Assembly (NCBI GenBank): GCA_015295835.1
Contig: DVEG01000020.1
Span: 299,709 to 331,708 of the forward strand
Reading direction: 5' to 3'
Length of the DNA: 32,000 nucleotides
Source of the DNA: Oscillatoriaceae cyanobacterium M7585_C2015_266
GTDB taxonomy: Bacteria; Cyanobacteriota; Cyanobacteriia; Cyanobacteriales; Oscillatoriaceae
The first letter of the stretch is position 1. Each line of letters begins with the position of its first letter. The position numbers and the translations under genes are program-made. Under the pieces are notes generated by a model. The model was not told the DNA's origin and did no database searches. It saw nothing but the letters and a program-made list of their open reading frames with translations. This document shows, one piece after another, positions 1,634 through 29,010 of this stretch.

Positions 1634-3246
1634 ATCAGAGTTTGCGTGTAAGGATGTTGTGGATGGGCAAAAATCTGTCGTGTGGGTCCGATTTCTACAA
1701 TCTTACCACTATTCATAACGGCAATGCGATCGCAAAAAAATCGTGCTACCCAAAGATCATGAGTAATAAATAAATAGGTTAACTGGAATTCTTCTTTTAA
1801 TTCCAACATCAATTCTAGTACCTGCGTCTGAACGCTGGCATCTAACATACTCACTGGCTCATCACAGATAACCAATTGCGGGCGAGTAATTAAGGCACGA
1901 GCGATCGCCACTCGTTGCTGCTGCCCTCCAGACAATTCAGCAGGAAAACGATCATAAAACTCTTTCCCTGCTAATCCCACCCGCTCAAGCATCTGTAAAA
2001 CCATTTCTTTTGCCTGTTTAGGCGTCGCCAGCTTGTGGATGAATAAAGGATCGGCAATACTCTGCCCAACCGTCATCATTGGATTGAGACAAGCGTGAGG
2101 ATCTTGAAAAATCATTTGCATTTGTCGTCGCTTTTGGCGCAGAGCTTTGGGCGATAATTTAGTCAAATCCGTGCCCATAAATTCTACTTTTCCGCCCGTT
2201 GGTTTAACTAATTGCAAAATCGTGCGTGACAGGGTACTTTTTCCGCATCCAGATTCTCCTACCAATCCTAGAATTTCCCCTGGATATAGTTCTAGGTTAA
2301 TGCCATCAACGGCTTTAATTATTTGCTCTGGTTGTTTGGAAAATAGCCGCTCTAAAAAGTTCTTTTCTATAATATAATGTTTTTGTAAATCTCGCACTAG
2401 CAATAAGGGAGATTGAGACTGAAAAGATTTCTGAGAAAGAGTGTTTTTTTCGGCTTGAATATGCAGCGCTGCATTCAAGAGTGAGCGGGTGTATTGGTGC
2501 TGCGGATTCTGGAAAACATCTGTAGCTGTACCGATTTCTACGATTTTGCCAGCATACATCACGGCAATGCGATCGCAATATTCTCCCACCATCGCCAAAT
2601 CGTGGGAAATTAATATCAGCGCTAAATTTCTCTCACGAACTAGCCGCGTTAACTCTTGCATGATTTCCGCCGCAACTGTCACATCCAAACTGGTAGTCGG
2701 TTCGTCGGCGACAATCATTTTCGGTTCGAGAAGTAATGCTAAAGCGATAGCCACCCGTTGTCGCATTCCGCCACTGAACTCATGTGGGTACTGCCCCCAC
2801 CGCGACGCAGGAATTTTCACTGCTTCCAGAGTCGCGATCACCTTTTCCTTAGCCTGTTTACGATTAAGGTGCGGCTGGTGTGCTAGCAGCGTTTCCATAC
2901 AGTGTTCCCCGATAGTCATTAAAGGATCGAGGCGCGTCATTGGATCTTGGAAAACTAGCGACACCGCCTCACCACGAAAGCGGCGCAATTGTTCCGGCTG
3001 CATATCAAAAACTGACTGCCCCTCAAAAATTACCCGCCCCTCAATTTTTGTTGCCGCAGGCAGCAGGCGCATTGCCGCACGCCCCAAGGTTGACTTGCCG
3101 CATCCCGACTCTCCCACCAGCCCCAGCCTTTCTCCCGCTTTCAGCGTCAGAGAGACGCCATCCACTGCCCAATTAGTTTCCCCGCCTCCTGTTTGATAGG
3201 GATATGCAACCCGGAGATTTTCCACGCAAAACAATGCTTCACTCAT
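1588..3246 (-). CDS. ABC transporter ATP-binding protein with two fused ATPase cassettes (DppD/DppF-like, peptide/nickel class)
   Basis: Two Walker A motifs (GESGCGKST twice), two signature motifs (FSGGMRQR, LSGGQQQR) and two Walker B motifs (IVADEPTTSLD, VICDEPVSMLD). No permease or binding protein is adjacent. Confidence 0.9.
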   Translation of the reverse strand: MSEALFCVENLRVAYPYQTGGGETNWAVDGVSLTLKAGERLGLVGESGCGKSTLGRAAMRLLPAATKIEGRVIFEGQSVFDMQPEQLRRFRGEAVSLVFQDPMTRLDPLMTIGEHCMETLLAHQPHLNRKQAKEKVIATLEAVKIPASRWGQYPHEFSGGMRQRVAIALALLLEPKMIVADEPTTSLDVTVAAEIMQELTRLVRERNLALILISHDLAMVGEYCDRIAVMYAGKIVEIGTATDVFQNPQHQYTRSLLNAALHIQAEKNTLSQKSFQSQSPLLLVRDLQKHYIIEKNFLERLFSKQPEQIIKAVDGINLELYPGEILGLVGESGCGKSTLSRTILQLVKPTGGKVEFMGTDLTKLSPKALRQKRRQMQMIFQDPHACLNPMMTVGQSIADPLFIHKLATPKQAKEMVLQMLERVGLAGKEFYDRFPAELSGGQQQRVAIARALITRPQLVICDEPVSMLDASVQTQVLELMLELKEEFQLTYLFITHDLWVARFFCDRIAVMNSGKIVEIGPTRQIFAHPQHPYTQTLIQAAPLLARSSTEVA

Positions 3247-3827: not shown

Positions 3828-4080
3828 AATAAAATAAATTTACTTATATTACTATATTGTAAGAAAGCTCTTTTAATGACTGTTCATAAAGCTTCGAGGA
3901 AGCTGTGAATTTTCTTGACAGTGAGAATCTTCTAGCTAAATTGTTCACTGTCTCGATTTCAGCCTTCCCAAAAAGCACATCGCCACTTAAACCGCCAATA
4001 ATTCTGTATAAATTGATACAGAAATGCGTTACAGCTAATTCTCTGCACCCAAGACTACTTATACATAAAGAGAGAGAGTT

Positions 4081-19553: not shown

Positions 19554-21764
19554 CTACGCGACTCGATAAATAAAACTGAGCGTAGCGTAAGCTGCTACAT
19601 CCAATGCATAAGCATCTGCTGAAACTCCTGCTATTTGTGCTTTTGGTGCACTTGCTTGGTGCAAGTCTTGCAAAAGAGCCTGAGCAACGGCTAAAGGATT
19701 AGACAAAAGGATAATAGACTGCCCATCTGAGCAGGGGCGAAGATCTCCCGCTAGTGCAGTAAAGGTGCGTGAGAAGGGGGCAAGAGAACAGATAATATAA
19801 GTTTCTATTAGCCCGGTGGTGCCAGCACTATGGGCGGAAACAATTTCAACAGGGGGAATGGTTACAGTTTGCCCTGGGGCGATCGCTTTTGGCGGCAAAA
19901 ATGTTATTTTTTCAGCAGTAGTGCAAGTTTGCAAACATCCAGCAAGCGCCCGCCCCCGATTATCCAAACCCATTAGCAAGTAATAAATTAGCTTATCACT
20001 TTGATTGCTCAATCGATAATGAATACGACTGCCCGCTGGTAAATTAATAACCTGTAGCGCTTCTTCCCCCGCCAGTTTACTACCCCCGGTTGCACCACCA
20101 AAACGCAAGCTTCCTCGCTCTATCAGCACTCTTTCTTCACTACCTGCCATTACCTCCAGTTTTGCTACAATCCCCAACTGCGAAGAACCCTCATTCGCCG
20201 TTAAACGCCACAATTTCGCAGCTAACAGAGCGTATAACTGCGGTGCTAAACGGCGTACAGCCGCTTTGACGGCTTCTCCCCCTTCGCCAACTGTATCAGG
20301 AATTAAACTCTGACTAAGAGAAAATAAACCATAGCTGCTAGGAGCAAGGGAAGGCAAGGCAGATTTAGTAGCAAGCAGCGTCTCGCGAACACGCCCGAAA
20401 AAGCAATCAGCCGGCTGCTCCGAAGCTATCACGGAAGAAACGTAGGGAATCGTGGCAAAAGCACTTGTGGCATCCACCCGCTCTATGCGTTCGAGGGAAG
20501 TATCTAGGGCAACAGTCAAGTTGGGAGTGCGGGGCAGTACCCGCACACTTTCTCGAACTAATTGCCCCACCTGTAGGGGGAAAGTGGTAGCAATATCGGT
20601 ATTGAGTAGTTGTGCCTGGGCAGATAAACCACTACGCGAGCGAATCTGTAGCAGCACCCGTTGGCGTAGCAACTCCACAGGAGTATCATTAGCATTATGC
20701 ACGCTCAGTAAGGAATTCACCCCGTAAGAGTCTATTACCCTTATCGGTAATCCCCCTAGCCACACTTGCGCTGTTTTACCGTCTTCTGCTACTGCCGTTA
20801 CCGCGCCTTCTGCTGGCGGGCTAAAGTATAAATCTGGGAAAAGTATAGGGCTTTTTTGCTCAGATGACTGCCACTGGGGTTTCTGAATCGTGCCAGCTAG
20901 TTGCTCTACCATACAAATGGCGCGCTGAAAGCTGAATAAAAGCGATCGCGCAGGGGTTGCCCACCACAGGCTTTGAGTAAGAGCGTAAGTAAATACGCCA
21001 GCGCTAAATCCGCTCCATACCATCTCGGTAGCAGCTTTTTCAGGGCTAGCTGCTGTCAGGAAAACTCCGTGCCATTTTCCCCCCCTGGAGTTTTCTATAT
21101 CATTATAGTTATTAAGATAGCTGTTTTGGAGAGCTAGTAATTTTTGTTCAGTTAGTAAACTAGGGCGAGAGCGAATCCGTAAATTCCCCTGAATGGAGGT
21201 GCCGGGATAGCTGTAGCCAGCATCGATGACAATCAGCACTCTCTGCAGCGAGCGTAGCAACCGCCACAGTGTTTCTTCTAGCAAGTCATTAACAGCAATC
21301 CCATCCGTACCAATAAAACTGTCAAAGGGCACAAGCGAATTGATATCATCGGCAGACTCAGCATCTGCTGCTCGCACTGTATACAAACGACGACCATATC
21401 CGCTAAAATGAAAAACTACTAGATCGTCTTCTTTTGCTTGTGCAATTAAATGCGTTTGTAAAGCCTCTTCAATATTCTGGCGAGTGGCTTGGCTATCTGT
21501 GAGGGTGACAATATCCTGTGCCTGAAAGCCAAACCGATACATTAACAATTCCCGTTGCAATTCTACATCTGTCACACATCCAGCAAGGTTGCCACCCCCT
21601 CCATACTGGTTTATGCCCACTAGCAGCGCTAACTTGCGCCTCGAAGGCTCTGCTAAAACGCTTATGGCGCGCTCGCTCCAATGCCACAATAGCGTCTCAC
21701 TGATTCCAATAGACGCTAGTAAGCCTCCAGCTCGTTGCAAAAATTCCCGCCGTTTCAGTCTCAT
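19554..21764 (-). CDS. Caspase-fold (peptidase C14) pseudo-orthocaspase with a Tat signal and a large uncharacterised C-terminal region
   Basis: Twin-arginine motif KRREFLQRAGGLLASIG. p20-like core KLALLVGINQY...LAGCVTDV...LVVFHFSGYG...LIVIDAGYSYPG. Tyr123 sits at the catalytic His position, and there is no Cys in the DxCHSG-equivalent segment. Confidence 0.8.
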   Translation of the reverse strand: MRLKRREFLQRAGGLLASIGISETLLWHWSERAISVLAEPSRRKLALLVGINQYGGGGNLAGCVTDVELQRELLMYRFGFQAQDIVTLTDSQATRQNIEEALQTHLIAQAKEDDLVVFHFSGYGRRLYTVRAADAESADDINSLVPFDSFIGTDGIAVNDLLEETLWRLLRSLQRVLIVIDAGYSYPGTSIQGNLRIRSRPSLLTEQKLLALQNSYLNNYNDIENSRGGKWHGVFLTAASPEKAATEMVWSGFSAGVFTYALTQSLWWATPARSLLFSFQRAICMVEQLAGTIQKPQWQSSEQKSPILFPDLYFSPPAEGAVTAVAEDGKTAQVWLGGLPIRVIDSYGVNSLLSVHNANDTPVELLRQRVLLQIRSRSGLSAQAQLLNTDIATTFPLQVGQLVRESVRVLPRTPNLTVALDTSLERIERVDATSAFATIPYVSSVIASEQPADCFFGRVRETLLATKSALPSLAPSSYGLFSLSQSLIPDTVGEGGEAVKAAVRRLAPQLYALLAAKLWRLTANEGSSQLGIVAKLEVMAGSEERVLIERGSLRFGGATGGSKLAGEEALQVINLPAGSRIHYRLSNQSDKLIYYLLMGLDNRGRALAGCLQTCTTAEKITFLPPKAIAPGQTVTIPPVEIVSAHSAGTTGLIETYIICSLAPFSRTFTALAGDLRPCSDGQSIILLSNPLAVAQALLQDLHQASAPKAQIAGVSADAYALDVAAYATLSFIYRVA

Positions 21765-22033
21765 GAAATTCTTCCTAGTTTCCCTATTTTATTTTAAATT
21801 CTTTGGTGACTCTCTGTAGCCCCCCTATCTTTACTCACGCTCTGTCATCCCTCTACAGAATGATTTAAATATTTTTTCAGATGTTAGTTTGGCTTTGGCA
21901 CTAAAATAATTTTAAGTAGCGATCGCTACTAGATGGGGGAGATTTTTTGGCCTTCGCTTCTTGGAAGATTAAGGAATTTAAACCATTCGGGATTTGAGAT
22001 TTGATAAACTAAGTGAAGAGCCTCTAAATTTTT

Positions 22034-23752
22034 CTAAAATCCTAAATCGTATTTGGCAGATTCTGCCGCTTTTAGTACAGTCTCAGTTGGCATGTTTTCC
22101 CAGTCTGTATCAGCTATATCCTGATAAAATTTTTCGTCATATGGGCGAGTCTGTATAACAACTGGCATCGGTACGGCATGCCCAAGAATTAGAGCTTGTT
22201 GTTTGGAATCTAGTTTGGCTAAAACTGAGCGCAGGCTTTGCCCCCCTGAAACGCCTGTGAAAATAGCATCTATGTCTTTCTCGTCATTAAGCAGAGCAGT
22301 GATGCGGGTGCCAATTTGAGACATAACTTCGTTATCAATTCCTGATGGGCGCTGATCGACAATTAATAATGTGACAAAATATTTGCGCATTTCTCTTGCA
22401 ATTGTGCCGAAAATTGTTGATCGCACTGTCGCCGGATCAAGAAATCTGTGTGCTTCTTCTATAGTAATTAATAACTGTCGCGGGCGATCGCTTGGATTTT
22501 TCGTCTGCAAAAATCTCTCTGTTTTTTGTACATAACTACTGTGAATCCGCCGAGAAATCATATTCGTCGCTAGCATATAAGAAAGCATGTTCGCCTGCGA
22601 GCCAAACTCTATAACAACATGTTTCCCTGCATCCAGCGATTCTAAAATTTGACCTATATAATTTTTCGGACTCGTATTGCGCATGTACTTTAAATCGTCT
22701 AAACGCATTAATTTCCGCTGTAAGGCAATAATCGATGCTTTATTCCCCCTTTTCTCATCGCAAAAGTCTTGAATTTCTTCATTTCCCATATTCAGCAATT
22801 GCGTAATCCACGATTTCCCGTATTCGTTGCGCAGGATAATCGCATTTTCGATCGCTGCATCAGAAAGATTTAGCTCCTTCTGTACAAGGGCAATATCTTC
22901 TACTTCTATTTGATCATAACTAAGATATAATTCCTGAGCATCACGCACACCCCGACGTCTAGTAGAAGCCGGATCAAGAGTATAAATCTCTACTTGACTG
23001 GGAAATAATTGCCGCAACCCTTTAACCATATTTAGTTGTTTGCCTTCCGTCGTAGCTTCCCAGCCATACTCCGAGTGCATATCAAAAATTAAATTCACTG
23101 CTGCCTGTTTTTTAATTACCCCAGATAGCAGTAAACGCGTTAAAAAAGATTTACCAGTTCCCGATTTGCCGAAAATACCGTTGCTGCGCTCAACAAACCG
23201 ATCGAGATCTATGCACACCGGCACATCCATATCCAAAGGCTTACCGATCGCAAAATTACGGCGGTGGGGATCATCTTCCCAGCCAAATACCAAACGGAAA
23301 TCTCTTTCGGTAGCATCGAAAACTTGCGAGAAATGTCGGGGAATAGTTTTTACCGGCATCAACGTTGATTTCTCGCTGACTGCAAATGTCTCTCCTTTCT
23401 GTGTTTTTGCCCCTCTGCCAGTAGCAAAATTAACAGCTACAGGTTTTTCTTCAGGCTCAGGAGTGAGCATCAGCATCGGCATTAAGCTGATAGTGCCGTA
23501 AGTGCCGCTGCCGGCAAGTACTGCTTGCATAAACTCGTCTTCTGGCAATGGTGGATTAGCAAGAATGCGCTCGCTAGAAGTTCCCAAGCAAACGTCAGTA
23601 AGCATACAAAAGAAATGCGCTCGCTCTCCCCGTACAACCATAAATTTACCCACTCGCATATCTTCCACCGAAACGTCAGGATGCAATCGCACTTCTAATC
23701 CTTGACTTAGAGAACCTTGTATCACAGAACCTAAGGGCTTCTCCGATTTCAT
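22034..23752 (-). CDS. HerA/FtsK-like ATPase (DUF87-type)
   Basis: N-terminal barrel-like region (GSVIQGSLSQGLEVRL...VGKFMVVRG...FFCMLTDV), Walker A GIFGKSGTGKS (about 23147-23179) and Walker B-like LLITIEEAHRFL. Confidence 0.8.
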   Translation of the reverse strand: MKSEKPLGSVIQGSLSQGLEVRLHPDVSVEDMRVGKFMVVRGERAHFFCMLTDVCLGTSSERILANPPLPEDEFMQAVLAGSGTYGTISLMPMLMLTPEPEEKPVAVNFATGRGAKTQKGETFAVSEKSTLMPVKTIPRHFSQVFDATERDFRLVFGWEDDPHRRNFAIGKPLDMDVPVCIDLDRFVERSNGIFGKSGTGKSFLTRLLLSGVIKKQAAVNLIFDMHSEYGWEATTEGKQLNMVKGLRQLFPSQVEIYTLDPASTRRRGVRDAQELYLSYDQIEVEDIALVQKELNLSDAAIENAIILRNEYGKSWITQLLNMGNEEIQDFCDEKRGNKASIIALQRKLMRLDDLKYMRNTSPKNYIGQILESLDAGKHVVIEFGSQANMLSYMLATNMISRRIHSSYVQKTERFLQTKNPSDRPRQLLITIEEAHRFLDPATVRSTIFGTIAREMRKYFVTLLIVDQRPSGIDNEVMSQIGTRITALLNDEKDIDAIFTGVSGGQSLRSVLAKLDSKQQALILGHAVPMPVVIQTRPYDEKFYQDIADTDWENMPTETVLKAAESAKYDLGF

Positions 23753-24017: not shown

Positions 24018-24596
24018 ATGAATACTCAATTTCCTGCAGATTGGCTAAGAAAAATCCTCAGCATTGCAGCCATTGTCAGTGCCAGCACTCTGCTTGTCAT
24101 CCCTGTAGAAGCAAAAAACTGCCAAGCAAAAGCCGAAATGCGGGCAGAATCCATGCGCATGCAGGATGAAAGCACAGCAATGAAGCCCAGCATTGTTGAA
24201 ATCGCAAGCAAAAACGACTCCTTCAAAACTCTCACCGCTGCCTTACAAGCCGCCGGTTTAGTCGAAACCCTAGCCGAAAAAGGTCCCTTCACAGTTTTTG
24301 CTCCAACAGATGAAGCCTTTGCCGCATTACCAGAAGGCACAGTGGAAACACTGCTCAAACCAGAAAACAAAGATAAACTAATCAAAGTCTTGACTTACCA
24401 TGTCATTGCTGGTGCCGTTAAATCTGGCGAGCTGACAGATGGAAATGTAACAACCCTAGAAGGCAACCCCGTAATAATTAAACTCGATGGTGGCAAAGTT
24501 ATGGTGAACGAAGCCAAAGTCACCACAGCAGACATCGTAGCAAGCAATGGTGTTATTCACATCATTGATAAAGTTATCTTGCCCCCTGATATGTAA
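24018..24596 (+). CDS. Fasciclin (FAS1) domain protein, secreted
   Basis: Signal peptide, then FAS1 motifs: SFKTLTAALQAAGL, FTVFAPTDEAF, VLTYHV, NGVIHIIDKVILP. Confidence 0.9.
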   Translation: MNTQFPADWLRKILSIAAIVSASTLLVIPVEAKNCQAKAEMRAESMRMQDESTAMKPSIVEIASKNDSFKTLTAALQAAGLVETLAEKGPFTVFAPTDEAFAALPEGTVETLLKPENKDKLIKVLTYHVIAGAVKSGELTDGNVTTLEGNPVIIKLDGGKVMVNEAKVTTADIVASNGVIHIIDKVILPPDM

Positions 24597-24630
24597 ATTC
24601 AGATTTCTAAATACCTAATAAAACACTTTA

Positions 24631-24654
24631 GGGCCTAACTTTTTGGTTAGGCCC
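24631..24654. terminator. GC-rich 9-bp hairpin downstream of the fasciclin gene
   Basis: GGGCCTAAC (24631-24639) pairs with GTTAGGCCC (24646-24654) around loop TTTTTG. There is no clean U-run on the plus strand. On the minus strand it is followed by TAAAGTGTTTTATT. Confidence 0.4.
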
Positions 24655-24659
24655 ACTCG

Positions 24660-24665
24660 TATAAT
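24660..24665 (+). promoter_or_regulatory. Perfect -10 box TATAAT, 32 nt upstream of RNA-like element copy 1
   Basis: TATAAT at 24660-24665. No convincing -35 element. Confidence 0.3.
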
Positions 24666-24696
24666 TAAAAGCTAACCGTAATAAATCAAACTTAAA

Positions 24697-24880
24697 CTAG
24701 AGTGGACAAACTACAATAGGTTTCGCGACAGGGGACACCCTTGAAACCTTGAAACCTGATTCGCTCACCTCTTTCTTTATCCCCTCCTGTTTAACTCTAT
24801 CGTTTGAAGATATTTTACACTTCTGTTGGTGTCCGATCTTAACTTAGCACACCTGCAATCAATTGACAAGTAGATTTTAC
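24697..24880. ncRNA. Structured RNA-like element, copy 1 (unclassified)
   Basis: Shares ordered blocks with copy 2: CTAGAGTGGACA (24697-24708), a hairpin AGGTTTC/GAAACCT (24718-24724 / 24743-24749) presenting CGACAGGGGACACC in its loop, TCCTGTTTAACT, GGTGTCC (24828-24834, complementary to loop GGACACC 24733-24739), AACTTAGCA, and TTGACAAGTAGATTTTAC (24863-24880). Strand is unresolved; plus is favoured by the flanking -10 box and terminator. Confidence 0.4.
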
Positions 24881-24944
24881 TAAACTTAATAATTTATTAA
24901 GTAATTTAAGATTTAATCTTTTCACTACTCAACACTTTATCTCC

Positions 24945-24988
24945 AAAAATGGGTAGGGTCTAGCCATACGCGACTAGACCCATTTTAT
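24945..24988 (+). terminator. Terminator-like hairpin between the two element copies
   Basis: GGGTCTAG (24956-24963) pairs with CTAGACCC (24974-24981) around a 10-nt loop, followed by ATTTTAT. The upstream AAAAATGGG is complementary to the downstream CCCATTTT. Confidence 0.45.
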
Positions 24989-25039
24989 CATAAGTAAGGA
25001 CTGAAAAAGAAGATAAAATAAAAAATTGATACTCTACAA

Positions 25040-25295
25040 CTAGGGTGGACAGTTCGCAGCTTAGCCTTATTTTTTACCGTACTCTCTTTTCTCCGACTTG
25101 CGGTTTGGCTTTGTTCAGAGAACTGAACGTTTGGCCACTTTTTCTTAGCGGTATCGGGTTCGCTGCATCTGGACTTTCGACAGGAGACACCAGGTCTAAG
25201 TCCTACTCTTTAACTGATTGATAACTGACTATTTAGTTTTTCGGTGTCTGATATCAAACTAGCATGCTATACCCTAGCTGACAAGTAATCTTTAC
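25040..25295. ncRNA. Structured RNA-like element, copy 2 (unclassified; possibly part of the rtcB leader)
   Basis: Same block order as copy 1: CTAGGGTGGACA (25040-25051), then an extra segment of about 110 nt closed by GCAGC/GCTGC that contains the hairpin GTTCAG-AGAA-CTGAAC (25112-25127). Next comes the hairpin GGACTT/AAGTCC (25171-25176 / 25198-25203) with loop CGACAGGAGACACC, then TCCTACTCTTTAACT, GGTGTCT (25243-25249, complementary to loop AGACACC 25185-25191), AACTAGCA, and CTGACAAGTAATCTTTAC (25278-25295). Confidence 0.4.
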
Positions 25296-25486
25296 AATAT
25301 TTTTTATTTTGTAAATTAAGTTAATATATAAGCAAGTAGCCAGGATTGGGGGATTAGAGGATGGGAAAAAAGCAGGTAGAAGTCGCAAAAACAATTATCC
25401 TGGTAGGAAAAATACAAGATAAAAAAAGAATTTCTCGTGCTATGATAGCCTAAAGGCAGCAAAAAAAAAAGTAAGGAAAAGATAAA

Positions 25487-26947
25487 ATGGCTAAAATAGA
25501 AGTTTTGGAACGAATTTCCGATACGGTTTGGGAAATACCAATTTCCTACAAAAAAGGAATGCAAGTGCCTGCACGAATCTATGGCACAGAAAAATTGATC
25601 CGAGAAATGGATGATGCCGTTTATGATCAAATAACAAACGTAGCCACACTTCCAGGAATTACTAAATATGCTCTGTGTATGCCAGATGGTCACTTTGGCT
25701 ATGGATTTCCCATCGGCGGAGTAGCTGCAATGGATGTAGAAAATGGGGGCGTTATCTCACCAGGCGGAATAGGATTTGATATCAATTGCGGTATGCGTTT
25801 GGTGGTGACTAATTTAACCTATGATGACGTCAAACCATATATTAAACAATTGGTAGATCGACTTTATGAAAGAGTGCCGGCAGGAGTTGGCAGTAAGGGA
25901 TTCGTGAAACTGTCACCAATGGAATTTCGTAAAGTCATGGAAAAAGGAGCTCGCTGGTGCGTGGAAAATGATTATGGCTGGGAAGAAGATTTGGAAATGA
26001 CCGAGGAAAATGGATGTATTAAAGGAGCCGATGCCTCGACAATTAGCGAAAAAGCGATCGAACGCGGTTTCAATCAAATCGGAACCCTGGGTTCGGGAAA
26101 CCATTACTTGGAAATTCAAGTGGCAAAACCAGAAAATATTTTTGATCGCTCCTTGGCTGAAAAAATGGGTATTACTATCCCTAATCAAGTCGTGGTAATG
26201 TTCCACTGCGGGAGCCGGGGATTTGGTCATCAAGTGGCCACCGATTACCTGCAAGTTTTCCTAAAAGTCATGGAAAGCAAATATGGAATTAAAATATTAG
26301 ATAGAGAATTAGCCTGCGCCCCCTTTTACTCTCCCGAAGGGCAAGCTTATTTTGCAGCTATGAAGTGCGGGCTGAATATGTCTTTTGCTAATCGGCAAGT
26401 AATTTTACACCGCATCCGAGAAGTGTTTTCGGAAATATTCGGGCGCTCACCAGAAGATATGAATATGCGAATGGTTTATGATGTTGCACATAATACTGCT
26501 AAATTAGAAAGTCATATTATTGATGGAAAAGAGCGATCGCTACTCGTCCACCGCAAAGGAGCAACACGAGCATTCGCCCCAGGAATGTCAGGAATTCCGG
26601 AAAAATACAAATCAATCGGACAGCCAGTTATTATTGGCGGCAGTATGGAAACCGGCTCTTATTTATTAGCAGGTGTACCCGGAGGAGCAGAAACATTCTT
26701 TAGCACCGCCCACGGCAGCGGGAGAACTATGAGTCGCACAAAAGCACGAAAAACTTGGCGCGGCGAAAAACTACAAAAAGATTTAGAAAACAAAGGAATT
26801 TACGTTCGCGCAACCTCTTGGAGCGGATTGGCAGAAGAAGCAGGCTCCGCCTACAAAAATATCGATGACGTAATCGCAGCCGCTGAATTAGCAGGAATTA
26901 GCAAAAGAGTGGTGCGGTTTACACCAATTGGAAATATCAAAGGATAA
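25487..26947 (+). CDS. rtcB: RNA 3'-phosphate/2',3'-cyclic phosphate--5'-OH ligase RtcB (archaeal/eukaryal HSPC117 type)
   Basis: 486 aa. Contains LPGITKYALCMPDGHFGYGFPIGGVAAMD, GGIGFDINCGMRL, GSGNHYLE, HCGSRGFGHQ and the guanylylated-His region TAHGSGRTMSR. Collinear with Pyrococcus-type RtcB as I recall it. Confidence 0.95.
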   Translation: MAKIEVLERISDTVWEIPISYKKGMQVPARIYGTEKLIREMDDAVYDQITNVATLPGITKYALCMPDGHFGYGFPIGGVAAMDVENGGVISPGGIGFDINCGMRLVVTNLTYDDVKPYIKQLVDRLYERVPAGVGSKGFVKLSPMEFRKVMEKGARWCVENDYGWEEDLEMTEENGCIKGADASTISEKAIERGFNQIGTLGSGNHYLEIQVAKPENIFDRSLAEKMGITIPNQVVVMFHCGSRGFGHQVATDYLQVFLKVMESKYGIKILDRELACAPFYSPEGQAYFAAMKCGLNMSFANRQVILHRIREVFSEIFGRSPEDMNMRMVYDVAHNTAKLESHIIDGKERSLLVHRKGATRAFAPGMSGIPEKYKSIGQPVIIGGSMETGSYLLAGVPGGAETFFSTAHGSGRTMSRTKARKTWRGEKLQKDLENKGIYVRATSWSGLAEEAGSAYKNIDDVIAAAELAGISKRVVRFTPIGNIKG

Positions 26948-26950
26948 ACT

Positions 26951-27832
26951 ATGCCACGCACACCACTGACTATAATAACAGGACCTCTCGGAAGCGGAAA
27001 AACAACCCTACTACGCCATATTTTAGATAGTTTTCCCAAAAAAATCGCTATCTTGATGAATGAATTTGGCGAAATCGCAATCGACAGCAAAATTATCGCC
27101 GGCAAAAACGTACAAATGGCTGAACTCGGCGGCGGTTGCGTCTGTTGTTCTCTCCTGGGAGAATTTGAAGCCGCTGTAAATGAAATTCTCGATACCATTG
27201 CTCCAGATAATCTGATCATAGAAACAACAGGCGTCGCCGAGCCAGACGCATTGGTATTTGATGCTCAAGAAAACTTGCCAAAAGTGCGACTAGATGGCGT
27301 GATAACAGTAATCGACGCCGATGCAATCGTAAAATATCCCAGCGTCGGGCACACAACACGAACGCAAATCGAAGCCGCCGACGCTATTCTATTAAATAAA
27401 ATAGATTTAGTATCAGAAAGCGAGTTAGAAGAAATCGCCCAAAAATTACAAAAATTTAATAAAACAGCAGAAATATTCCCCACCATACGCTGCCAAGTCG
27501 ATACCGAATTACTATTTGGCATCGGCAGGGAAAAAATAGAACAACCCCCTCACCATATTCACCAGCCAGAATTTGAATCCTTCGTTTATACGTCATCGGC
27601 AATAAGCGAGCGCACACGGTTCGAGGAATTTGCCAATAACATTCCCTCCAACATCTATCGAGCAAAAGGATTCATCCGATTTTCCGATGGAATCTATCTA
27701 TTTAATTTCGTCGCCGGGCGCTGGGATTTAGAGCAATTTCAACAACAAGCAACAGAATTAGTATTTATCGGTAAACAGGCAAAACAACGCCAAGCCGAAA
27801 TAATCGAACAATTAAAAAAATGCGAATACTAG
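26951..27832 (+). CDS. COG0523-family G3E GTPase (CobW/YjiA/ZigA-like putative metallochaperone)
   Basis: Walker A GPLGSGKTT (26981-27007), metal-binding GCVCC motif (Cys codons 27137-27148), ETTGVAEP, the NK.D motif in LLNKIDL, and a CobW_C-like C-terminal domain. The start codon is 3 nt after the rtcB stop. Confidence 0.9.
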   Translation: MPRTPLTIITGPLGSGKTTLLRHILDSFPKKIAILMNEFGEIAIDSKIIAGKNVQMAELGGGCVCCSLLGEFEAAVNEILDTIAPDNLIIETTGVAEPDALVFDAQENLPKVRLDGVITVIDADAIVKYPSVGHTTRTQIEAADAILLNKIDLVSESELEEIAQKLQKFNKTAEIFPTIRCQVDTELLFGIGREKIEQPPHHIHQPEFESFVYTSSAISERTRFEEFANNIPSNIYRAKGFIRFSDGIYLFNFVAGRWDLEQFQQQATELVFIGKQAKQRQAEIIEQLKKCEY

Positions 27833-27835
27833 CCT

Positions 27836-28267
27836 ATGCCTTACGAATTTCTAGAAGATACCGCCACCGCTGATATTGCTTTTCGCGCCTGGGGAAAAAA
27901 CCTAGAAGAATTATTCATCGCCGCCGGCGACGCCACAATAAACACAATGATCGATAATATCGATGCGATCGCACCCAAAGAAACCCGCACCTTCAACCTA
28001 GAAAATGACGACTTAGACATGCTACTATTTAACTTCCTACAAGAACTCATCTACTACAAAGATAGCGAACAGCTCCTACTCAGAGCACAACACATTAATA
28101 TTTCCCAAGAAAATAACAAACACCAACTCAAAGCCATCACAGCAGGAGAAACCCTGACTCCTGAAAAACACTCTCAGCGAGTAGATGTAAAAGCCGTTAC
28201 ATTACACCGCTTTCAACTAGAAAAAACCGCCAACGGTTGGGAGACTTTCATAATACTAGACATTTAA
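27836..28267 (+). CDS. Archease (RtcB activator)
   Basis: 143 aa. The N-terminal YEFLEDTATADIAFRAWGKNLEELFIAAGDA and the C-terminal VKAVTLHRFQL...ILDI match the archease pattern. The start codon is 3 nt after the GTPase stop. Confidence 0.88.
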   Translation: MPYEFLEDTATADIAFRAWGKNLEELFIAAGDATINTMIDNIDAIAPKETRTFNLENDDLDMLLFNFLQELIYYKDSEQLLLRAQHINISQENNKHQLKAITAGETLTPEKHSQRVDVKAVTLHRFQLEKTANGWETFIILDI

Positions 28268-28311
28268 TTTAATAAAAAAAATACCGGCAACTCCAAAAAC
28301 AAAATGCACCT

Positions 28312-29010
28312 ATGACATTTATTCTCACCAACGATGACGGAATTGACGCCCCCGGCTTGCACGCACTCCTAAAAGCCGTAAACGGCAAAGCCATTCTAAT
28401 TGCTCCCAAACAAGAATGCTCTGGTTGTAGTCATCGCGTCACGACAAAGGAAGGGATTCATGTCGAAAAACGCTCCCAAACCGCCTACGCTGTAGGTGGC
28501 ACCCCCGCAGATTGCATACGCCTAGCAATATCACATCTTTGCCCAGATGTAAAATGGGTGCTCTCTGGTATCAATTGGGGAGGAAATGTGGGAGTAGATA
28601 CTTATATCTCCGGTACGGTTGCCGCAGTGCGCGAAGCGGCTTTTCACGGCATTCCTGCGATCGCAATTTCCCATTATCGCAAAGGCAAACTAAATGTTGA
28701 TTGGGAACTAGCTGCCCACTGGGCAGCTATAGTACTAGATGAATTACTTAGTCGCCCCCTCGCACCCGGTAGCTTCTGGAATGTAAATCTGCCGCACCTG
28801 CTCCCCGGCGCTCCCGCTCCTCAGATAGTATTTTGCCCCCCCAGTAGGCAACCATTACCACTGAAATATCGGGTAGAAGGAGAATATTTTTATTATATCG
28901 GCGATTATGCCAGCCGTGAACGTGCTCCAGGCACCGATGTCGATGTCTGTTTTTCTGGTAATATTGCCGTCACCCAGTTGCGACTAGAGAGCGCTCGCTT
29001 CTTACTGTAA
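28312..29010 (+). CDS. surE: 5'/3'-nucleotidase SurE (short form)
   Basis: N-terminal ILTNDDGIDAPGL, GTPADC, SGINWGGNVG, SGTVAAVREAAFHGIPAIAIS, and the C-terminal TDVDVCFSGNIAVTQL. Confidence 0.88.
   Translation: MTFILTNDDGIDAPGLHALLKAVNGKAILIAPKQECSGCSHRVTTKEGIHVEKRSQTAYAVGGTPADCIRLAISHLCPDVKWVLSGINWGGNVGVDTYISGTVAAVREAAFHGIPAIAISHYRKGKLNVDWELAAHWAAIVLDELLSRPLAPGSFWNVNLPHLLPGAPAPQIVFCPPSRQPLPLKYRVEGEYFYYIGDYASRERAPGTDVDVCFSGNIAVTQLRLESARFLL

Follow-up and report, generated by a model that had tools for sequence, protein, structure and literature searches.

A duplicated, conserved structured element upstream of a cyanobacterial rtcB gene: a candidate pair of small-RNA genes on the opposite strand

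In the filamentous cyanobacterium Oscillatoriaceae cyanobacterium M7585_C2015_266, 890 nt (24597-25486) separate a fasciclin-domain gene from rtcB. The gap lies in a 32-kb stretch of DNA from contig DVEG01000020.1, which is called the window here. An original prediction, made from the letters alone, placed two tandem, diverged copies of a structured RNA-like element in the gap, oriented with rtcB on the plus strand and possibly tied to RtcB function. As judged by comparison with related loci, the two copies are a duplicated, non-coding structured element under purifying selection. We propose, with a probability of about one half, that they are a tandem pair of paralogous small-RNA (sRNA) genes on the minus strand, which would be transcribed away from rtcB toward the fasciclin gene.

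The two copies share an ordered series of blocks, found where the original prediction had put them: AACTAGRGTGGACA at 24695 in copy 1 and 25038 in copy 2, the loop block CGACAGGRGACACC at 24726 and 25178, CCTxCTxTTTAACT at 24783 and 25202, GGTGTCYGAT at 24828 and 25243, and TGACAAGTA at 24864 and 25279. Each of the 14-mer blocks occurs at only two places in the window, against a chance expectation of about 0.15 when up to two mismatches are allowed. For comparison we used rtcB loci from genomes and contigs with near-identical RtcB proteins, numbered here L001, L002 and so on. The element is carried by the window together with L001 (RtcB 100% identical), L082-L086 (97-98%) and L002 (92%). Thus both copies and their blocks are retained in three further lineages, always in the same order with the short form first and the long form second, and each orthologous copy keeps its own distinguishing features. 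The DNA flanking the copies is unalignable between lineages or swollen by tandem repeats. In L002, for example, some 430-450 nt of tandem repeats (2660-3090) are inserted between copy 1 and a downstream hairpin (T2, described below), both of which are intact. Conservation of copy 2 is lost past about 25300, and the distance from there to rtcB grows from about 190 nt in the window to about 440 nt in L002. Since the copies are kept while the DNA around them is not, the elements appear to be under purifying selection.

Outside these lineages the element was not recovered. It was absent from the other rtcB loci searched by motif and nhmmer (80 loci) and with a covariance model, R1 (47 sources, including all cyanobacterial ones), whose sole matches were the copy 1 orthologues; the loci without the element comprise more than 30 from other cyanobacteria and about 45 from other phyla. 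The contigs with a 91%-identical RtcB were too short to reach the element. A search for homologues of the fasciclin protein added no further lineage carrying it. DNA-pattern scans of JGI metagenomes gave no match in a first round and, in a second, two chance matches lacking the other blocks; the same kind of scan found no match in viral contigs, and blastn found none in plasmids and phages. No Rfam 15 family reached its gathering threshold anywhere in the window, and at E<=10 the region 24550-25520 gave seven chance-level hits, none on the conserved blocks and all far below gathering, which agrees with the original view that the element belongs to no described family. No ribozyme family of Rfam matched, and nothing here points to a ribozyme; RAGATH-6 scored 20 bits against a gathering threshold of 170, outside the element. 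ARAGORN found nothing resembling a tRNA or tmRNA. We therefore regard the element as a candidate new sRNA family, confined to one narrow cyanobacterial lineage.

The copies also have a fold in common. Global folds from RNAfold and RNAalifold differ by strand and by copy and are poorly supported, and only helices shared by both paralogues were kept. This left a core of three helices at equivalent places in the two copies, S1, H and Px. Helix H is the hairpin whose stem had been said to differ completely between the copies while staying complementary, which is indeed the case: the stem reads AGGUUUC/GAAACCU in copy 1, GGACUU/AAGUCC in copy 2 and GGC-CUAGA/UCUAG-GCC in copy 1 of L002, complementary throughout, and two of its pairs are lost in copy 1 of L082. 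Its 14-nt loop is nearly identical in the two copies, as described; on the minus strand of copy 1 it includes GGUGUCC CCUGUCG. S1 is a pseudoknot of 7 bp between RGACACC and GGUGUCY of this loop. The predicted 7-bp pairing is kept in all copies, but the single covarying pair offered in its favour (G24733/C24834 versus A25185/T25249) does not hold everywhere, as this seventh pair takes the forms C-G, U.G and U-A when read on the minus strand but is an A.C in copy 1 of L002 (U.G on the minus strand) when read on the plus strand. Px, a third helix new to this analysis, encloses the hairpin and changes in a compensatory manner from CAAAC/GUUUG in copy 1 to CAGUU/AACUG in copy 2.

The insertion of about 110 nt reported in copy 2, closed by GCAGC/GCTGC, proved to be a conserved and folded extra domain. 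It has three inner helices (UACCG/CGGUA; UGGC/GCCA around GUUCAG/CUGAAC; CCG/CGG), all five of its helices are 100% paired in four sequences, and it is the most conserved stretch of the gap. A putative closing helix of copy 2, CTAGGGT/ACCCTAG, was discarded: copy 1 lacks it, and about two such 7-bp matches are expected per 270 nt by chance. No conserved terminal stem is common to both copies, and the ends of the RNA are only predicted.

We then counted covariation in gapless 38-column alignments of the three helices, made from hand-picked segments, in which most of the signal comes from the comparison of paralogues. On the minus strand 95.1% of cells are paired. Both sides change in 9/17 pairs, a count matched by 0/500 shuffles, and controls with slid partners gave at most 2. 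When only orthologues are counted, pairing in the helices is 95-97%, with mostly invariant positions or one-sided changes. Three shared helices with paired changes therefore make a folded single-stranded molecule well supported, within the limits set by hand-chosen segments and four lineages.

On which strand would this molecule be made? The best-defined signal in either copy is a promoter-like module on the minus strand that leads into the pseudoknot strand, and the plus-strand orientation first proposed is for that reason probably wrong. Every copy, in each lineage, carries a minus-strand match to the pattern TTGNCN-N14-TGNTANNNT, which has 4 matches in the window in total against 0.32 expected and occurs at only 2 places in 82 unrelated loci. 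The -35 hexamer is TTGTCA in the copies, with TTGCCG in one, and the -10 has the form TAnnTT. The spacer is 17 nt long in all copies and free in sequence, as a promoter spacer would be, and we found no covarying helix within this block that would explain it as RNA. Read on the plus strand the same block is TAGCA-N17-(G)RCAAGYA-N3-TTTAC. Upstream of the module lie an A/T-rich tract with GTAAA in copy 1 (24870-24897) and an A-rich tract in copy 2 (25285-25300). The sequence thus has the features expected of a sigma-70-type promoter: a TTGACA-like -35, a spacer of 17 +/- 1, an extended -10 and a purine start 6-8 nt on. That purine, 7 nt past the -10 hexamer, is the R of RGACACC (G24834 in copy 1 and A25249 in copy 2), and therefore the predicted transcript would start exactly at the pseudoknot strand. 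The predicted +1 is also the covarying position of the original prediction (C24834/T25249 on the plus strand). Approximately one third of the supposed RNA would thus be more simply read as promoter. Readings of TAGCA...TTTAC as a sigma-54 promoter or a LexA box were dropped by eye, there being no GG-N10-GC and no consistent palindrome.

Two hairpins flank the copies on the side where minus-strand transcripts would end. T1 lies between the fasciclin gene and copy 1 and is a candidate terminator for both the copy 1 RNA and the fasciclin mRNA; its U-rich tail is on the minus side in the window and L002 (two of three lineages) and never on the plus side. T2 lies between the copies. It is the terminator-like hairpin noticed originally, and it is real and conserved, being found in L001 and L002 by nhmmer and in L082 by reading and folding. 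Its stem has 10 bp, including a conserved U.G, and -20.5 kcal/mol on the minus strand versus 8 bp on the plus strand, and it is a candidate terminator of the copy 2 RNA that could act in both directions. T1 and T2 are stable and conserved, with z-scores between -3 and -4.8. Their U-tracts on the minus strand are imperfect or offset by 6 nt, and a terminator scan called neither. Some weaker points also favour the minus strand: the seventh pair of S1 includes no A.C there, the stem of T2 is longer, the U-rich tail of T1 is on that side, and transitions within helices leave G.U more often.

Copy 2 had been thought to run into the rtcB leader, which is not what we see. The spacer of 190-440 nt between copy 2 and rtcB is unconserved and variable. 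Beyond it a motif, GTG(C/A)TATG(A/C)TA(G/T), is kept in four lineages (the window, L082 at about 2072-2083, L002 at about 3890-3901 and L087 at about 96-107) while its surroundings are not. This is probably rtcB's own extended -10 promoter, and the element is probably not the 5' leader of rtcB. The predicted sRNA promoters have the GTGCTA start in common with this motif.

What we observe, then, is a set of paralogous conserved units with a three-helix pseudoknotted core, one extra domain, a promoter-like module for each copy and flanking hairpins. In the arrangement that we propose, each gene would have its own sigma-70-type promoter, composed of the A/T-rich tract, the -35 TTGTCA, the 17-nt spacer ending in TGC and the -10 TAnnTT. 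Transcription would begin at the purine of RGACACC and end at the GC-rich hairpins, T1 (24654-24631) for copy 1 and T2 (24981-24956) for copy 2, to give RNAs of about 210 nt and about 300 nt, respectively. The 5'-terminal 7 nt of the RNA, bearing the triphosphate, would pair with the loop of the downstream hairpin to form the pseudoknot, Px would enclose that hairpin, and copy 2 would add its folded domain (about 110 nt). The fold would be followed by a conserved tail, UGUCCRCYCUAGUU. The compact fold might provide stability and shape, leaving this tail, the loop YCUGUCG and the junction AGUUAAA free for contacts in trans with an mRNA or protein partner. Our best guess for the function, by analogy with other tandem sRNA pairs, is a trans-acting riboregulator.

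Several points weigh against this proposal. The -10 hexamers match only 3-4/6 consensus bases, and a generic promoter scan reported neither of them. The core helices pair equally well on both strands, minimum free energy z-scores are weak and prefer no strand, and the tally of transitions within helices defined by Watson-Crick pairs, which leave G.U about six times on the minus strand versus about three on the plus strand, is not significant. The U-tract of T2 adjoins the stem on the plus strand but on the minus strand begins 6 nt past it. Weak -10-like hexamers are present on the plus strand as well, exactly 20 nt upstream of the CTAG of copy 2 in three lineages. Only four lineages are available, and the covariation leans on the paralogue comparison and on hand-chosen segments. 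A target search with the conserved single-stranded motifs against the translation-initiation regions of the window made no gene stand out. Lastly, promoter, start site and terminators are all predictions from sequence. On balance we lean modestly towards the minus strand, which is not proven.

The reading that draws most on these points is that the copies specify non-coding RNAs on the plus strand, copy 1 being ended by T2 and copy 2 lying within, or being processed from, a long rtcB transcript, much as the Salmonella Y RNAs are placed. Its promoter could be the perfect TATAAT at 24660, which has a TATAAA at the matching position in L082, or for copy 2 the -10-like hexamers just mentioned; AUUUUAU immediately follows T2 on this strand, the core helices pair slightly better here (96.1%), two transitions favour it, the discarded CTAGGGT/ACCCTAG pairing has G.U variants on the plus strand only, and tandem non-coding RNAs beside rtcB recall the rsr-yrlB-yrlA-rtcBA locus (PMC4201824). 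We nevertheless consider it possible but doubtful. It leaves TAGCA-N17-CAAGYA-N3-TTTAC unexplained, with its free spacer of fixed length, its lack of a covarying helix and a full promoter match on the other strand, and no comparably specific promoter match precedes either copy on the plus strand, where the -10-like hexamers were seen by eye. The pairing of CTAGGGT is missing from copy 1, and rtcB has its own promoter-like motif, with the unconserved spacer between it and copy 2. As the original prediction had noted, no Ro/TROVE gene is present, since Pfam scans of 28 open reading frames across the 32-kb window found no such domain; moreover, the T-arm motif GTTCRANNC is absent from both strands of 24597-25486, no T-loop was seen, and no Rfam Y-RNA matches even at E<=10. 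These findings bear equally on the suggested functional tie to RtcB, which is unsupported beyond adjacency, the element being absent at more than 30 other cyanobacterial rtcB loci. It is a long shot that the pair is a Ro-independent counterpart of the Y RNAs, in which a base-paired 5' end or a UGUC-rich loop or tail would be recognised, cut or sealed during RNA damage, forming with a divergent rtcB promoter a sensing or decoy module for RtcB-archease-CobW-SurE; adjacency is what speaks for it.

A tandem leader or riboswitch pair on the plus strand, controlling rtcB-cobW-archease-surE by termination or by occlusion of the ribosome site, would suit the location upstream of the operon and the strand that was first assumed. 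Hairpin-loop pseudoknots are common among aptamers and some riboswitches are arranged in tandem, habits with which the element fits, and structured leaders that mask the Shine-Dalgarno sequence do occur at other cyanobacterial rtcB genes. We find it improbable, in that the copies lack an expression platform (the conserved sequence stops short of the rtcB start codon by about 190 nt in the window and by about 440 nt in L002), a strong conserved candidate terminator stands between the copies with no conserved alternative pairing seen, the rtcB-proximal promoter-like motif lies downstream of copy 2, the leaders of the other cyanobacterial loci are unrelated and no Rfam riboswitch matches. Still a little less probable is a DNA-level element without functional RNA, whether a relic resembling a miniature inverted-repeat transposable element or an array of protein-binding or recombination sites. 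The duplicated unit with its conserved sequence blocks, the part from TAGCA to TTTAC that is best read as DNA signals (a promoter) and traces of a duplication of about 410-470 nt would agree with it. The original prediction had named such an origin as one that would overturn it, and the evidence is to the contrary: there are no terminal inverted repeats at the element, exactly two copies occur per locus in the window and related loci, always in the same syntenic place, none turned up in the plasmids, phages, viral contigs and metagenomes searched, and three helices with compensatory changes speak for a folded single-stranded molecule. The least probable account, and a very unlikely one, is that the minus strand carries two small protein genes. 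Copy 2 has a frame of 39 codons (25075-25191) with a GUG start in the conserved loop, open and ending at the same stop in three lineages, and copy 1 has one of 23 codons behind a perfect AGGAGG. But the three codon positions share the substitutions almost equally (5/6/6), more codon changes are non-synonymous than synonymous (synonymous to non-synonymous 0:4 in L082 and 4:8 in L002), a second frame is likewise open, the copy 1 frame runs into a stop in L002 and is put out of register by an 8-nt deletion in L082, and the two copies have no common frame through the conserved tail. The 39-codon frame is probably a by-product of strong nucleotide conservation.

A pair of minus-strand sRNA genes might act on the neighbouring rtcB, and here too there are sequence matches to consider. 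AAGTAAGGA and AAGATAAAAT recur just past T2 (24992/25010) and at the rtcB ribosome-binding site (25469/25479), within stretches of 24992-25019 and 25469-25488, the latter including the rtcB start codon; moreover, the rtcB ribosome-binding site shows 82% complementarity to 24913-24929. We rejected antisense control of rtcB translation, as shuffled targets gave duplex energies at least as good and L002 does not keep the matches. We treat these matches as A-rich chance or as duplication relics. AAGTAAGGA, AAGATAAAAT and the repeats D1-D4 hint that the rtcB leader was long ago part of a tandem duplication of about 410-470 nt, and traces of a longer duplication of this size are seen around the copies (repeats D1-D4, D11 and D14).

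Smaller duplications were observed within the copies themselves. Copy 1 of the window contains a local 8-nt tandem duplication, CTTGAAAC CTTGAAAC (24743-24757), which gives the hairpin stem a choice of two 3' (plus-strand) partners and is single in L082. L001 has a 13-nt tandem duplication, CTATTTAGTTTTT, in the copy 2 linker (2732-2757, equivalent to 25223-25240 of the window), so this linker tolerates length change. The copy 1 loop of L001 carries a G-to-A change (CGACAGAGGACACC) outside the 7 paired loop bases. The repeats inserted in L002 consist of AGTCAGG heptamers followed by CTCAGCACTCTTTA-type units, and the equivalent in the window is only 60 nt, a local expansion.

The coordinates of all features are collected in Table 1.

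Table 1. Features of the gap upstream of rtcB and of the adjoining genes, in window coordinates; a dot marks features listed without a strand.
Feature	Coordinates	Strand	Remarks
Copy 1, whole conserved unit (short form)	24685..24897	-	Promoter-like module and core; alignable to L082/L002 over exactly that span
Copy 1 promoter-like module	24841..24869	-	-35 TTGTCA 24864-24869; 17-nt spacer ending TGC; -10 TAAGTT 24841-24846
Copy 1 S1 pseudoknot strand, GGACACC	24828..24834	-	Pairs with 24733-24739 in all copies
Copy 1 Px 5' strand, CAAACGAU	24799..24806	-	Pairs with 24707-24717
Copy 1 hairpin H	24718..24749	-	Stem AGGTTTC/GAAACCT, 24718-24724 / 24743-24749; S1 partner 24733-24739
Copy 1 Px 3' strand and conserved tail	24695..24717	-	Px 3' strand 24707-24717; tail UGUCCACUCUAGUU 24695-24708
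Hairpin T1, GGGCCTAAC / GTTAGGCCC	24631..24654	.	Between fasciclin gene and copy 1; candidate terminator of copy 1 RNA and fasciclin mRNA
Copy 2, whole conserved unit (long form, extra domain)	25028..25300	-	Alignable to L082, L086, L002
Copy 2 promoter-like module	25256..25284	-	-35 TTGTCA 25279-25284; 17-nt spacer ending TGC; -10 TAGTTT 25256-25261
Copy 2 S1 pseudoknot strand, AGACACC	25243..25249	-	Pairs with 25185-25191
Copy 2 hairpin H	25171..25203	-	Stem GGACTT/AAGTCC, 25171-25176 / 25198-25203; S1 partner 25185-25191
Copy 2 extra domain (~110 nt)	25056..25166	-	Closed by GCAGC/GCUGC, 25056-25060 / 25162-25166
Copy 2 Px 3' strand and tail	25038..25054	-	Px 3' strand 25050-25054 (partner 25223-25227); tail UGUCCACCCUAGUU 25038-25051
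Hairpin T2	24946..24988	.	Stem 24956-24981; between the copies; candidate copy 2 RNA terminator, could act in both directions
rtcB promoter-like motif, GTGCTATGATAG	25437..25448	+	Extended -10 TGC-TATGAT; outside the element
Fasciclin-domain gene	24018-24596	+	Upstream neighbour of the gap
rtcB	25487-26947	+	First gene of operon; Pfam
CobW/HypB/UreG-family GTPase with CobW_C domain	26951-27832		rtcB operon; Pfam
Archease	27836-28267		rtcB operon; Pfam
SurE-like nucleotidase	28312-29010		rtcB operon; Pfam

The genes around the gap were identified from Pfam domains. The window RtcB is 100% identical to that of the metagenome-assembled genome 'Oscillatoriaceae bacterium SKW80'. The make-up of the rtcB operon (25487-29010) is unusual, and its gene order is the same in L001 and L082; that a metallochaperone-type GTPase adjoins a metal- and GTP-dependent ligase is perhaps worth attention. 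Further upstream, on the minus strand, a HerA-type ATPase (HAS-barrel and DUF87; 22034-23752) lies beside a 736-aa protein (19554-21764) with a caspase (Peptidase_C14) domain at its N-terminus, and the two (19554-23752) could be a defence-type gene pair. The remainder of the 32-kb window is ordinary chromosomal housekeeping DNA.

If the proposal is correct, filamentous cyanobacteria have a new structured sRNA family that would be unusual in locking its first transcribed bases into a hairpin-loop pseudoknot, and the natural pair of a short and a long paralogue would provide a built-in comparison of the core fold with a whole inserted domain. There is a caution here too, namely that conserved structure lying 'upstream of' a gene can belong to an independent gene in the opposite orientation. 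Practical importance is limited for now, the element having been seen only in one narrow lineage whose members are mostly uncultured.

Conserved non-coding structure upstream of a cyanobacterial rtcB is not peculiar to this locus. The rtcB genes of Fischerella, Chlorogloeopsis and Nostocaceae have a conserved leader of about 110 nt (L003, 2855-2985; L004, L008 and L010, 3877-4007; L006, 3790-4007), in which an inner hairpin CCACGAA...UUUUGUGG is kept and a conserved TTTAGACAGAGGTT box lies upstream. We regard it as a possible cis-regulatory leader of rtcB, with no relation to the element: unlike the element it abuts the start codon, where its ACUCCCG(C) pairs with the Shine-Dalgarno sequence (G)CGGGAGU, and the two have no sequence in common. 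With the pseudoknotted aptamers of the HLout and H types (SAM-II, preQ1-II/III) the element shares a hairpin loop that pairs with a distant 7-nt single strand, and with these and tandem riboswitches it shares conserved junction and loop residues, a variable peripheral domain and two units in a row. It differs from them in having no expression platform or regulated open reading frame, in the candidate terminator that separates its units, and in matching no Rfam family and suggesting no ligand; on the favoured strand, moreover, the outside strand of the pseudoknot would be the RNA's own 5' end.

In Salmonella, the rsr-yrlB-yrlA-rtcBA locus has two Y RNAs (YrlA/YrlB) upstream of rtcB (PMC4201824). 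The likeness is that two tandem structured non-coding RNAs adjoin an rtcB RNA-repair operon. The element differs in that it has no Ro60/TROVE gene in the window, no T-arm or D-arm, no Rfam hit at E<=10 and no stem found to join its 5' and 3' ends, and it is probably on the strand opposite rtcB.

The closest comparison is with the tandem duplicated pairs of trans-acting sRNAs, such as OmrA/OmrB, PrrF1/PrrF2 and AbcR1/AbcR2, and with the NsiR1 arrays of Nostocales. The element is known from sequence alone and has no sequence or Rfam relationship to any of these. Its conserved 5' end would pair with an internal hairpin loop rather than act as a free seed, and one copy has a whole domain of about 110 nt that the other lacks. 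The resemblance is one of organisation: in both cases two adjacent paralogues occupy a single intergenic region, each with its own promoter and terminator (here predicted), the ends and motifs are conserved while the middle has diverged, and the 5' end is conserved from what would be the first transcribed base.

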